Source: Promethearchaeota archaeon
GTDB taxonomy: Archaea > Asgardarchaeota > Lokiarchaeia > Sigyniarchaeales > SOKP01
Direction of reading: 5' to 3'
Assembly (NCBI GenBank): GCA_016840165.1
Contig: JAEOSU010000052.1
Location: 1-19,539, forward strand
DNA length: 19,539 bases
Shown: positions 12,206-19,539 of the stretch, one piece after another
Numbering within the stretch: the stretch's first letter is position 1
Layout: each line of letters starts with the position of its first letter
Notes under the pieces: generated by a model
What the model was told of the DNA's origin: nothing
Database searches by the model: none
What the model saw: only the letters and a program-made list of their open reading frames with translations
Translations under genes and position numbers: made by a program

Positions 12206-14131
12206 ATGACTGATATGTTTGAGTCTATGCACCCTTCACCCGATGAGTTGCAGTTTATCCTTGAGTTCATAGAAGATGCTATAGCGTCTGGAGATTATAC
12301 TCAAGCCCTGAAAATGGCACAAAAAGCCTTAAAAACGTCAGAAGAGCAATATTGGGTTGACATTTTTGAAGGCCTAATTGAAAGGATTACTAACCTGCAA
12401 AATTCAAACTTAGTTGGAGAGGAATCACAGATTATTGAAAATAAAACCCCAAAAATCAATATACCAGAGATTAAATATCCTAAATTAAATCAAAAAATCC
12501 AAGAAGAATCGATTGATGATTTATGTCAATTATCGGGAGTTGGACCTGATATGGCTCAAAGGTTACATAATGAAGGTTATCACACTTTTACTCAATTATC
12601 GAGAACTAATCCTGAAGAATTGTCTCAAATAAGGGGTATAGAAGTTGCTACTGCGAGAGTAATAATCTCATCTTCACGTAGTCAGATCATTTCTCCTAAG
12701 AGGTCATCAAAAGTTCAAAAAATGCTTGATTTTGATACTCCATCAGTAAATCCCTTTACAGAGATGGAAAAACCTCCTAACCAATCTAAATTAAGGGATA
12801 TAAGAGAGCCTCGGATTCCTAATTATGACCAAATATTAAAAGCAGAGGAACACTGTAAAAATAATATAGTATCAGAACCCATAGATGCAATTAATAATCA
12901 TAAATTTAGCTCTTCCGATGAAGAATCTCCAAATATCTCAATTGAACAAGACCTAAAAAATAATGAAAAAGAAAATGAGATGCTTGAAGAAGAAGGAAAA
13001 GAAATTGATTCTGACCAAAATTTAAATTCCAATCCATATTTAGATGCAACTATACCAAAAAAAACAATAACATCTATTTTTCAAGAAAATGGCTACACAT
13101 TATTTCCAAGAAAACCTTCTTTTCGTTTCTATTTTCATGGAATAGACGGAATTAGTCTAAATCTATTTTCAATAACGCCATCTAAACAAGCTTTACTTAT
13201 TATCCCATATAAAATTTCTACCTTTTCAGAAAAAGTAATGGTATCTGAAACAGAAATCGGGTCATTTAATTCTGAAAATAAGACTCATCTTCCACATTTT
13301 GAAGTTTCTCTGTTAAAAAATCGAGAAAGTCTTCTGGAAGCTTTGAAATCGGACGGAAAGCTTATCAATCACATCTCGGAAATTCTCTGCGAAAACATTA
13401 GTCCTGAAAACACTGCTATCCATATCGAACCATTGCTCATCTTCTCTAAAGTACCAGGATTTAGAGAAAAATCAATTATATTTGCTTATCAAAAACGAAA
13501 TCAGCTCCATATCATAGGTCTAACTCAATTTACATCATTTCTTCAGTTTGTCCAAAAGAAAATTTTTTACATCGAAGCTTACGCTCTCTCTCGTCAAAGA
13601 AAGAATAATAATAGGCAATCTAGGGAAGTTTTAAACAAGAAAATCCGTCGTTTGTCCTATCCATTTATTGCTTATGGGGTAATTTTTGCTCTGATAATAG
13701 CTTCAGGATGGTATGATATACTTAAATTAGGTATATCAATTGGTTATGCCAGCATGATTTTTTATTTAATGGGACTTATCTTTTTAACGTGGAAGAATCA
13801 TCTACAAAAGAAACAAAACTTTGCGCAATCCTTACCTAGTAAAAGTCTGGAGCCTCTTACGTTTGATGAGGATGATTTAACATTGATTAAGGAGGAACTT
13901 ACCTTGGAGCAGATAACTCAGTTCAGTTATGAATGTTTTGGGAAACAGAATCCATATAAAATATTTGAAGAGGTAGAAAAAAAACAATTAGATAAAATAA
14001 ATGTTCAAAACTCGACCATAAGAAAGAAAGAAGTTCAAACCTCTTCAAAAAACTCTTCTAATGCTCAAATTTCAGTTATAAGTAAGGAAAATGAGCTCGT
14101 TAAGAAGTATAGCTCATTCCTCGACGATTAA
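12206..14131 (+). CDS. Membrane-anchored helix-hairpin-helix DNA-binding protein with a degenerate PD-(D/E)xK-like domain and 2 TM
   Basis: Tandem HhH 'DDLCQLSGVGPDMAQRLHNEGY...EELSQIRGIEVATARVII' (~12515-12670); low-complexity acidic linker; 'IFQENGY...GIDGI...LLIIPYK' (13067-13213); two TM (~13652-13792). Confidence 0.75.
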   Translation: MTDMFESMHPSPDELQFILEFIEDAIASGDYTQALKMAQKALKTSEEQYWVDIFEGLIERITNLQNSNLVGEESQIIENKTPKINIPEIKYPKLNQKIQEESIDDLCQLSGVGPDMAQRLHNEGYHTFTQLSRTNPEELSQIRGIEVATARVIISSSRSQIISPKRSSKVQKMLDFDTPSVNPFTEMEKPPNQSKLRDIREPRIPNYDQILKAEEHCKNNIVSEPIDAINNHKFSSSDEESPNISIEQDLKNNEKENEMLEEEGKEIDSDQNLNSNPYLDATIPKKTITSIFQENGYTLFPRKPSFRFYFHGIDGISLNLFSITPSKQALLIIPYKISTFSEKVMVSETEIGSFNSENKTHLPHFEVSLLKNRESLLEALKSDGKLINHISEILCENISPENTAIHIEPLLIFSKVPGFREKSIIFAYQKRNQLHIIGLTQFTSFLQFVQKKIFYIEAYALSRQRKNNNRQSREVLNKKIRRLSYPFIAYGVIFALIIASGWYDILKLGISIGYASMIFYLMGLIFLTWKNHLQKKQNFAQSLPSKSLEPLTFDEDDLTLIKEELTLEQITQFSYECFGKQNPYKIFEEVEKKQLDKINVQNSTIRKKEVQTSSKNSSNAQISVISKENELVKKYSSFLDD

Positions 14132-14213
14132 TTTTGAATTTTTCTGTTTTTTTCCTTTAAAAATAATGAATAAGATATAACTTCAAAATATCATCTTTAG
14201 TGAAAGATCTATC

Positions 14214-18800: not shown

Positions 18801-19539
18801 GTTATGACTTAGAGTATGCAGTAAAAAAGCTTATCGCTGAAACCAAAAAGACTATCTTTGAAAAAGATTTTGGAGAACATTCATATCTCATCGAACCAAC
18901 TATTTCTTTTTTGAGTGATCTACGTACCATGGACCAAATTGGCAACTTATATGCTGAAACAATTAAAAAAGAACTAAAGATAAGATTGGATACAAAAATA
19001 TCGGAATTTACTCAAAACAAAAAGAGGAAAAAAAACATCCGTGACATTTTATTTTCTATTTTACTTAAACATGGATACTTAGAAGAACATCATCCTACTC
19101 AAGCAAGTGGCTCGGAATCGATACGCACATCATATTTTGTAGGACCTCAATTTGATAAAGCGCTTGAGGACTTTATTAATGTTAAAAAACAAATCCCACC
19201 AGAAATGGAAGTGCTTCAACAGGAATCTAATGCAACAATTGAGTCTATAATTGGCGCTCCACAACCTGCAAATAAATCGGATATAAAAGAGACTCCAATT
19301 AGCACCCCTAGGAGGATAATAGAATCAGTACTAGATCAGCGCAAACTTAAGGAGGTCATAGCACGGGCGATTGGCGATACTTTATTTTTTGATCTATTTG
19401 AGATTTTTCGAGCGATTTCCCATAAAGACTATCGGACTGGTTTAGAAATAGTTAAGCAATATCTTGACCATTTCATATTCCAAGTTTATAATAGCTACTA
19501 TAAAGTGGACTATGTAATTACTAAAGAGGATCTCGATCA
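15821..19539 (+). CDS. Large (at least 1239 aa, 3'-truncated) membrane protein: 2x[2TM + alpha/beta module] + catalytically degenerate HerA/VirB4-family ATPase + probable winged helix; not in the supplied ORF track
   Basis: Manual translation from the ATG at 15821 (3 nt after the previous stop, GGGGG upstream) shows no stop to the window end. HerA/VirB4 landmarks: IVFDFVGNY (17789-17815), TIIIDLS, LRKYGFGLIATTSQ (from 18449). The Walker A position reads LLVTNGNMEQQN and the Walker B position reads SLVIPHID. Confidence 0.85.
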   Translation, partial: MVDSHISYLNGSYPKSNPKKEQTTTIMKYKNIWKEELPYIRDINVSIFKRVVVVVVGLFYLISIVLITFNLTFALFIMALYYICFFIIFHDNFFHFSNTIHYESANPFKDIQFWQFTYDDTIILMTNSRTQYTSGVKIFQVKVLPENVKANISRYISALAASYVPFSYQIVQQPLRSSLKTGSKDASPQRFQTLIYFSLFYDIHSKLTPAKLKIMVEKLNNYAISLKNTFLSNFHHYQISLLAGKSLQSALRTFLIKKPFISAEKSSSEGELNTSMEPEDETEVDSLKNMNLLPHLSFSMILKGIFIILMLLSIDFFLNLLQIILPYRILFSIVIGGFFLTQFVPQIFRFLPFINENKASLKNNQEILFLDLFIGVKFFTITGIKTTIFYQTEDGYIGGIKQMNLSYATPPIIALPYKFYQAVVQQGIEFAYTVQLLPISYDQFTDRYSSFLKQKLWNYMQKALNTPAKQNNWLAGRRGLWRTILTISCSHTVVASVCSVEILEHIEKKLEHNINIMRNALMANVSNCHFVPLSSHTLEMGILFEIFKTNRIRRDGTHLHHIIFQGTTLPAFIWLSDMFKKGLETKIATEFNSPLHLENFIIIGSTINTETLQREILAGFTKTQLDTLLVTNGNMEQQNLLVQRIVGELVKKQYPTIVFDFVGNYSRLIRQFEGTDLKDSFLYYKLGKTFNLDLVHSGIKHDPNNIDYLEFMFEAYANCFKKDERTIEIFKNSLMRNLDKGTNVSGSTIALGISSEPDWLHNQEPGALSVMNFFKDFSHEGNNFLHLNTGISSSYSLIKEFLTNKRTIIIDLSLPNGLEKKSFLMFIILAKCIHYINNGEAFIPKSLVIPHIDLAFDAFFIEKNMRYGRIGKFFDPLRKYGFGLIATTSQVRYLHSNLFTYFENFVSFKAVDSRDIKTLKNIMGLDNVHGTGIFSKTRNEPYQVQYLMSMRFDEALIKRDDLYQPFPIETDWKEVLSNSPLTWDEIVKYMKKQGYDLEYAVKKLIAETKKTIFEKDFGEHSYLIEPTISFLSDLRTMDQIGNLYAETIKKELKIRLDTKISEFTQNKKRKKNIRDILFSILLKHGYLEEHHPTQASGSESIRTSYFVGPQFDKALEDFINVKKQIPPEMEVLQQESNATIESIIGAPQPANKSDIKETPISTPRRIIESVLDQRKLKEVIARAIGDTLFFDLFEIFRAISHKDYRTGLEIVKQYLDHFIFQVYNSYYKVDYVITKEDLD

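Follow-up and report, generated by a model that had tools for sequence, protein, structure and literature searches.

CedD of Saccharolobus, in which a transmembrane (TM) part and an N-terminal domain are joined to a HerA/VirB4-like domain, is required for DNA import, and the N-terminal domain of VirB4 is matched in one half by that of CedB and in the other by that of CedD (PMC11868833). Ted loci sit beside Rad50 and HerA-like genes (PMC9905601), and PINA, a hexameric ATPase, partners with Hjm/Hel308 (PMC6061704). The locus reported here lies at the 3' end of a 19,539-nt stretch of DNA (the window) of a Promethearchaeota archaeon; the window is the entire contig (C31) of a 3.6-Mb metagenome-assembled genome, 99.7% complete and 6.3% contaminated, with ~32% G+C. 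It carries an operon of membrane-protein genes, designated P1 to P5, whose largest product, P4, has the fold of a HerA/VirB4 ATPase without the catalytic motifs. The P4 operon is matched by no described system, and P4 probably serves as a DNA-holding platform.

Organization of the operon

The 3' end of the window encodes P1, P2, P3 and P4, four real membrane-protein genes that share one orientation in the list of open reading frames (ORFs), preceded by a possible promoter:

12171..12178, + strand: candidate archaeal promoter, TATA-box-like TTTATAAA, ~28 nt 5' of the P1 start codon, read in the sequence
12206..14131, + strand: P1, 641 aa (ORF list, Pfam, alignment, TM prediction)
14214..14963, + strand: P2, 249 aa, ~4 TM helices and a conserved cytoplasmic tail with a D-x-D-K-L-I motif
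14960..15817, + strand: P3, 285 aa, conserved helical cytoplasmic domain and C-terminal TM hairpin
15821..19539, + strand: P4, first 1239 of 1300 aa, with the rest on contig C45 (L003:1-311); the ORF list gives 15821-19537, open at the contig end

A preliminary description of the window had named four such genes with the last three translationally coupled, the second encoding a 4TM protein and the third a helical 2TM protein, and all of this holds. The stop codon of P2 and the start codon of P3 share the ATGA at 14960-14963, and P3 and P4 are spaced by 3 nt (15817/15821), both as read in the sequence; a purine-rich stretch lies directly upstream of the P3 start and of the P4 start. The hydrophobic segments of P2 are three strong and one weaker, and P3 is helical with its hairpin at the C-terminus. 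P2 to P4 are thus tightly coupled genes. A second TATA-like box precedes P2, and with such boxes before both P1 and P2, P1 may have a promoter of its own.

The window terminates inside P4, and contig C45 completes the gene through an exact 127-nt overlap (window 19413-19539 = L003:1-127); no repeat explaining the break inside P4 was found at the C31/C45 junction. A full-length homologue (P0005) has 1300 aa and is 98% identical to P4. Four independent assemblies (L075-L078) of a 98%-identical strain have the same gene order and an uninterrupted P4 of 1300 aa. An assembly artefact was considered and is ruled out by this identical order in four independent contigs. The sequencing runs containing the locus are all DNA metagenomes from sediment and soil, with no RNA run among those listed.

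On C45, P5 (113 aa) begins 1 nt after P4; next come a GNAT-like gene of 418 aa and, in convergent orientation, a PP-loop gene. These genes occupy the place just downstream where an active VirB4/VirD4 had been suggested, which refutes that suggestion, and no active HerA gene lies there either.

The pseudo-ATPase P4

P4 was modelled over aa 360-1239 from 67 sequences, with a mean predicted local distance difference test score (pLDDT) of 80, and its parts were delimited as follows:

15947..16615, + strand: module 1, TM hairpin (aa 43-94) and alpha/beta part to ~aa 265 (hhalign, TM prediction)
16694..17455, + strand: module 2, TM hairpin (aa 292-348) and alpha/beta part to ~aa 545 (hhalign); a separate ~280-aa protein in other Asgard lineages
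17564..18820, + strand: HerA/VirB4-fold pseudo-ATPase domain, aa ~582-1000 (structure model)
17702..17737, + strand: degenerate P-loop LLVTNGNMEQQN, without GK[ST] and including TNGNMEQQ; family consensus TNGTxxSRE
18356..18379, + strand: Walker B position, where SLVIPHID replaces hhhhDE
18938..19180, + strand: winged-helix region, aa ~1040-1120, aligned to the C-terminal winged helix-turn-helix (wHTH) of shorter cousins

The structural matches of aa ~582-1000 include the C-domain of DndH (Z 25.4), the C-terminal domain of VirB4 (4ag5, Z 25.1), HerA (4d2i, Z 24.5) and TrwB (Z 22.5), with Foldseek E ~1e-12, and HerA-nuclease defence complexes and EccC are also among the matches to the ATPase fold. 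These values (Z 24-25 for HerA and VirB4), together with the degenerate P-loop and the altered Walker B position, bear out the preliminary view of P4 as a giant HerA/VirB4-like protein that lacks Walker motifs. The HerA-type landmarks keep their order, the hhhDxxG.Y motif after the P-loop helix reading FDFVGNY and IIDLS being retained. The Walker A lysine is missing in all relatives examined, that is, in 17 family members and in cousins from five other lineages, and the acid of Walker B is missing at the IPHID position of the family alignment (n=17). Because this lysine and this acid are missing, P4 as read from its sequence cannot be a motor.

The N-terminal part of P4 is internally duplicated, aa 40-265 being homologous to aa 295-545 (hhalign probability 98.7%, E 2e-16). 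In the winged-helix region the model has a helix-strand-strand-helix arrangement, and the corresponding part of the cousins matches PadR, HTH_34 and HTH_24 under the Pfam cut-offs. DUF87 (PF01935) scores 18-20 bits on P4 against a cut-off of 23.2; three of the 17 members match it at E up to 1, the best at 1.2e-6. The PDB sequence profile of the ATPase-like domain returned chance matches only, and no model that would name P1, P2, P3 or P4 was found in Pfam, NCBIfam or PADLOC.

Comparison with described systems

By its architecture P4 is likened to CedB and CedD of the crenarchaeal Ced system and to TedB of Thermoproteales (PMC9905601, PMC11868833), being membrane-anchored, with TM segments, an N-terminal alpha/beta part and a C-terminal HerA/VirB4 fold, and its tandem modules could be the counterpart of the CedB and CedD N-terminal domains. 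As in Ced and Ted, the operon is chromosomal and archaeal and includes small TM partner proteins; as at the Ted loci, which hold recombination and repair genes (PMC9905601), the family adjoins recombination genes in several Asgard lineages. However, P4 and its relatives have no competent ATPase motifs, unlike CedB, CedD and TedB, and P4 has two tandem modules and a winged helix. No gene for a Ced/Ted-type pilin (VirB2-like, CedA1/TedC) occurs in the operon, and the one pilin-like candidate in the window, a 74-aa hairpin, is found only in a non-conserved insert. No VirB6/CedA/TedA-like channel of 5-7 TM helices was found in the operon or downstream of it; P2, which was compared by Pfam and NCBIfam only, has ~4.

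Fusions of VirB3 with VirB4 exist, and P4 resembles VirB3-VirB4 (TrwM/TrwK of R388; 8rtd, 7o42) in the TM hairpin that comes before its alpha/beta N-terminal domain. Full-length TrwK/VirB4 superposes on P4 module 2 through the ATPase-like domain at Z 16-18 with a root-mean-square deviation (rmsd) of ~11 A, a loose but architecture-wide match. P4 differs from VirB3-VirB4 in the missing ATPase motifs, in the extra wHTH and in the loose fit of its N-terminal part, and no other component of a type IV secretion system (T4SS) accompanies it. PF03135 (CagE_TrbE_VirB) gave no match in a six-frame search of the complete genome, the window contig included. The preliminary description had placed the locus with Ced/Ted- or T4SS-like machines; this assignment fails: a competent ATPase, a PF03135 match and a conserved pilin are all absent, and no VirB6/CedA-like gene was found.

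With archaeal HerA (4d2i), Sir2-HerA and DUF4297-HerA, P4 shares a RecA-like core with a helical insert (Z 19-24.5), and, as in HerA-effector complexes, a small coupled protein is encoded downstream, P5, which in some species carries a nuclease-type domain. Unlike HerA, P4 is membrane-anchored and has lost the catalytic motifs, DUF87 remains below its cut-off, and alpha/beta modules replace the N-terminal barrel. No NurA, Mre11, Rad50, Sir2 or DUF4297 partner was found in the window, on C45 or in the related loci, and the genome has four true DUF87 ATPases, all on other contigs. The gamma domain of FtsK is a C-terminal winged helix, and P4 resembles FtsK/SpoIIIE in the order of its parts, with four TM helices at the N-terminus, then a linker and a ring domain of RecA type, and the winged helix last. 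The Z value for FtsK is only 13.4, however, the ATPase motifs are missing, and the TM helices form two hairpins, each with a globular domain of its own; PF01580 (FtsK) has no match in the window and matches only another contig.

PADLOC-DB 2.0.0 (library of 2023) gave no match for P1 to P5 or for the cousin pair described below, in agreement with the preliminary view of an undescribed system; only the core of the neighbouring Hel308 matches HamB models. The operon is not a member of the Ced/Ted, T4SS, HerA-NurA or FtsK systems, and no description of the family was found in the literature searched.

P1, the small subunits and membrane topology

P1 consists, from the N-terminus, of a helical bundle, a tandem helix-hairpin-helix domain, (HhH)2, an acidic disordered linker, a conserved alpha/beta domain, a TM hairpin and a conserved cytoplasmic tail. 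Its delimited parts are:

12503..12685, + strand: (HhH)2 domain of DNA-binding type, aa 100-160 (Pfam HHH_5, E 2e-9; NCBIfam RadA N-terminal, E 2e-8)
13052..13615, + strand: central conserved alpha/beta domain, aa 283-470 (alignments)
13652..13789, + strand: TM hairpin, aa 483-528 (TM prediction)
14105-14128, + strand: C-terminal peptide KYSSFLDD, aa 634-641 (alignment)

P1 had been described as an HhH DNA binder with a degenerate nuclease fold. An HhH domain of DNA-binding type is upheld by the HHH_5 match and by the model of the (HhH)2 domain, which resembles NusA AR2, the HhH part of the POLQ helicase-like domain (POLQ/Hel308) and the N-terminal domain of Rad51/RadA (Z 8.8-9.4, rmsd 1.8-2.8 A). 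The nuclease fold is not confirmed: for aa 283-470 no match was obtained with Foldseek against pdb, with wide VIA, with the atlas by shape, with the PDB sequence profile or in Pfam (14 members), searches in which the rest of the model outweighed this domain. In the alignments D314, P334, K336, E348, E421 and K422 are invariant, and D314, together with P334-x-K336 and E348, may represent the remains of a PD-(D/E)xK motif with the second acid wanting, a lead only. A language-model search placed the domain near Mrr_cat/PDDEXK_3 clusters at 0.80-0.83, under its reliability mark and hence a weak lead. Comparison of the P1 family with the P4 module by hhalign revealed no relation. KYSSFLDD is the extreme end of P1 in most homologues and looks like a docking peptide.

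Basic residues at both flanks of the P1 hairpin predict that both termini are cytoplasmic. The TM hairpins of the operon proteins are flanked by basic residues on the side of the large domains, so that nearly all of the mass is predicted to be cytoplasmic, and the extracellular loops are predicted to be short. No family match was found for P2 or P3 in Pfam or NCBIfam. Prediction of a complex of P2, P4(1-362) and P3 scored 0.73 versus 0.75 for a control in which the P4 part was replaced, which gives no verdict and is not evidence.

Conservation in the Lokiarchaeial family

P4 homologues, with identities of 30-55%, are found in 21 of the 24 sampled genomes of the genus. Within the genus the proteins of the operon are 25-55% identical versus 64-72% for the adjoining helicase, which in the window is encoded at:

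1230..3770, - strand: Hel308-type SF2 helicase (Pfam DEAD, Helicase_C, Helicase_dom4_arc, weak HhH matches)

The best NCBIfam matches of this helicase are the Hel308 equivalogs (E 1e-98 to 1e-118), at 330-396 bits versus curated cut-offs of 887-1216. Since the genome encodes no other close Hel308, this is the housekeeping copy. The full order of a divergent Hel308 followed by P1, P2, P3 and P4 occurs in 11 of the 16 fetched loci, often continued by P5 and the 418-aa gene, and in 11 related loci without an insert the distance from Hel308 to P1 is ~0.2-2.7 kb.

In 75 of the 81 family genomes P3 and P4 agree: 52 have both genes, and in 23 neither was found. Of these 23 genomes, ten are 92-99% complete, and the six discordant genomes are all incomplete or carry a broken copy of P4. 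Together with the synteny, this agrees with the co-conservation anticipated in the preliminary description. Inheritance and loss affect the operon as a whole, which is therefore dispensable; P1 to P5 are one vertically inherited operon of the Lokiarchaeial family. The ratio of nonsynonymous to synonymous substitution rates (dN/dS) of P1 to P4, compared with the 98%-identical strain, is 0.21-0.36, and selection on these genes is purifying but relaxed. A mobile element or provirus was considered and rejected, as the loci inspected showed no integrase and the operon keeps a fixed place beside Hel308.

Decay of the operon is possible in single genomes, one of which has an intact P3 followed by only a 189-aa fragment of P4 (G018:C17:129917-131276), while a P4 copy elsewhere contains five in-frame stops (G223:C4:90978-92368).

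Paralogues of P4 also occur outside the operon. In two genomes a paralogue without P1 to P3 is followed by a 631-aa HerA-like ATPase (L061:4577-6472 and L025:14690-16591, the copies being 36% identical), and in the L061 copy of the ATPase both Walker A (GLTGAGKT) and Walker B are intact. A 27%-identical relative of this ATPase is encoded in the source genome (C48, 11479-13914); the next gene encodes an acidic protein, and no P4 adjoins it. The genes before another paralogue (L060:9965-11955) encode a 171-aa protein with a CDC48 N-domain and a 500-aa TPR protein, and the gene after it encodes a DUF285 repeat protein.

The wider Asgard family

A profile of the ATPase-like domain retrieved weaker relatives in records labelled Thor-, Baldr-, Frey-, Odin-, Asgard- and Helarchaeota, and the public records examined name the family hypothetical, wHTH or 'predicted regulator'. 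An exhaustive profile search with a limit of E 1e-30 yielded 181 cluster representatives, which fall into three length classes. Besides the long form represented by P4, cousins of 480-533 aa consist of a dead ATPase and a wHTH and are preceded by a separate protein of 250-350 aa with the TM hairpin and alpha/beta module (hhalign 95.7-97%), and cousins of 750-825 aa have one module fused to the dead ATPase and wHTH. All of the cousins are without the P-loop lysine and read GGSxxER there, with an invariant Arg; many retain hhhhDD at the Walker B position. Hidden Markov models of P2, P3 and P5 found no counterparts adjoining the cousins in other Asgard lineages. The gene module appears to be confined to Asgard archaea.

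Hel308 is encoded near the pseudo-ATPase in several of these lineages: on the same strand in Baldr loci, with its start overlapping the pseudo-ATPase stop in Thor loci, and ~5 kb off in Odin-like loci. RadA adjoins the cousins in Frey and Thor loci, and XPD in Thor loci. A peptidase-like membrane protein is a further neighbour. The loci are:

L055:3690-8230, L067:5276-9837, L068:8058-12574, L069:8722-13271 and L073:9209-13758: Thor-labelled loci, pseudo-ATPase overlapping the Hel308 start, with RadA and a helicase of XPD type in the same long run of co-directional genes
L054:2309-4975 and L070:10598-13417: M28-peptidase-like membrane protein (880-940 aa) upstream of the module and pseudo-ATPase, Frey and Odin/Asgardarchaeia loci

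Upstream insert and variants of P5

In the window and in near-identical strains only, a stretch of ~8.4 kb (3771-12205) parts Hel308 from P1. Its features are:

4011-4220 and 4300-4491: two small Zn-ribbon ORFs
5116-5340, - strand: 74-aa two-helix hydrophobic hairpin with a basic loop, pilin-like, not syntenic with the operon in relatives
5688-6842 and 7098-8165: two paralogous TM-anchored proteins
8204-8959: M50-like membrane protein, a weak match (E 0.007)

The insert also contains several small TM ORFs. A 986-aa protein of surface type, with a prenyltransferase-type alpha/alpha toroid (E 1.6e-11) and a faint Ribophorin II match, is encoded directly upstream of P1. The genes of the insert have no match between Hel308 and P1 in the 11 related loci. 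Of the upstream partners proposed in the preliminary description, Hel308 is therefore kept as a conserved neighbour, while the pilin-like gene, the ribbon, the protease and the adhesin-like proteins belong to a lineage-specific insert.

P5 has a constant N-terminal part of ~110 aa and a C-terminal part that varies among species; in the source genome there is no C-terminal domain. P5 of one species carries an NYN RNase domain (Pfam, 2e-10), and in five species it has a HEPN-like helical domain in which an R-N-x3-H motif is conserved; no HEPN family of Pfam matches these long forms. Homologues with differing C-terminal domains are located at:

L059:14065-14937, L017:14502-15416, L021:3124-4017, L016:3096-3995, L023:3547-4410 and L022:3622-4506

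Proposed role of the operon

A cytoplasm-facing membrane platform for DNA, working with Hel308 and RadA, is assigned a probability of roughly 45%. Such a DNA-holding role is the likeliest of the explanations weighed because the family is linked to Hel308, RadA and XPD across Asgard classes, and handling of DNA at the membrane is the best reading of the operon because of its HhH and wHTH domains and the repeated linkage to these genes. P1 to P5 would form a membrane-anchored complex facing the cytoplasm, in which P4 would form a ring-like platform that binds DNA at the inner membrane face. P1 would contribute its (HhH)2 domain, of RadA/Hel308 type, as a second DNA-binding element tethered to the membrane. 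The membrane subunits would be P2 and P3, and P5 would be an adaptor, which in some species bears an RNase-type domain. DNA would be held or handed over at the membrane for recombination or repair that depends on Hel308 and RadA, and the energy would be supplied in trans, most plausibly by Hel308 as a presumed partner. The DNA may be chromosomal, for tethering or for the processing of forks or junctions, or it may be entering or leaving the cell in an exchange.

Several observations weigh against this proposal. The operon is not found in about one third of the 81 family genomes, some of them 95-99% complete, and therefore does not serve a core repair function. Its fast evolution, the paralogues in other contexts and the variable RNase-type domains of P5 would also fit a conflict system. 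The linkage to Hel308 in the Lokiarchaeial family is divergent, and the two are not co-transcribed.

An import or exchange machine related to Ced, Ted or T4SS, with P4 docked under a channel made by the TM segments of P1 to P4, DNA passed on to RadA, and another ATPase or Hel308 as the motor, is rather unlikely. The VirB4-like architecture of P4, with TM hairpins ahead of its N-terminal domain, speaks for it, and so does the case of CedB and CedD, whose N-terminal domains cover the halves of that of VirB4 and of which CedD is essential (PMC11868833). The Rad50 and HerA-like genes of Ted loci (PMC9905601) have a parallel in the linkage of the family to RadA, Hel308 and XPD, and a P4 paralogue in two genomes adjoins a HerA-like ATPase, of which the copy read has intact Walker motifs. 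The ATPase motifs are lost in every lineage examined, however; the genome has no VirB4 match to PF03135 and keeps its true DUF87 ATPases on other contigs; the operon has neither a VirB6/CedA-like polytopic protein (P2, with ~4 TM helices, matches no family) nor a conserved pilin; and the short extracellular loops predicted here also argue against import. A wider form of the idea, an Asgard-wide chromosomal DNA-exchange apparatus of common ancestry with VirB4 and CedB/CedD, in which the ring would be a passive conduit or dock and Hel308 the motor feeding RadA, is held to be unlikely.

A system of anti-virus defence or conflict, in which a membrane-anchored HerA-like ring would act as a sensor or scaffold that recruits nuclease effectors in the manner of Sir2-HerA or DUF4297-HerA, with a Hel308/HamB-like helicase nearby, is likewise considered improbable. 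Rapid divergence within the genus, the dN/dS of 0.21-0.36, the patchy presence with extra paralogues in some genomes, and the variable C-terminal part of P5 (NYN, or HEPN type with R-N-x3-H) would all suit it, as would the HerA-nuclease defence complexes among the structural matches and the HamB match of the Hel308 core. P1 to P5 and the cousins have no PADLOC match, however, and the P5 of the source genome has no effector domain, the HEPN assignment in other species being without Pfam support. No integrase, transposase or other defence gene was seen in the inspected loci. Moreover, the place beside the sole Hel308 of the genome is fixed in the family and recurs in other Asgard classes, which favours vertical descent over a mobile defence island. 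A membrane scaffold for protein handling or envelope biogenesis, unrelated to DNA, with HhH and wHTH as protein-binding modules, is judged very improbable. Protein transport does occur in part of the wider FtsK-HerA superfamily, an example being the ATPase EccC of type VII secretion, which is among the structural matches of P4. M28-peptidase-like membrane proteins recur as neighbours in Frey and Odin-like loci, one P4 paralogue adjoins CDC48 N-domain and TPR proteins, and the 986-aa surface-type protein lies directly upstream of the operon in the window; yet two independent domains of DNA-binding type are conserved, the linkage to Hel308, RadA and XPD is recurrent across lineages, and P4 would be unable to power translocation without ATPase motifs.

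Significance

P4 is a clear case of the fold of a pumping ATPase retained as a pseudo-enzyme over millions of years. At the inner membrane face the module would bring together a motor-dead ring of VirB4/HerA shape, a winged helix and a RadA/Hel308-type HhH domain, which makes it a concrete candidate for a membrane-coupled platform of recombination or DNA transfer. Exchange, segregation and repair of DNA at the membrane in Asgard archaea bear on the origin of eukaryotic recombination and sex.

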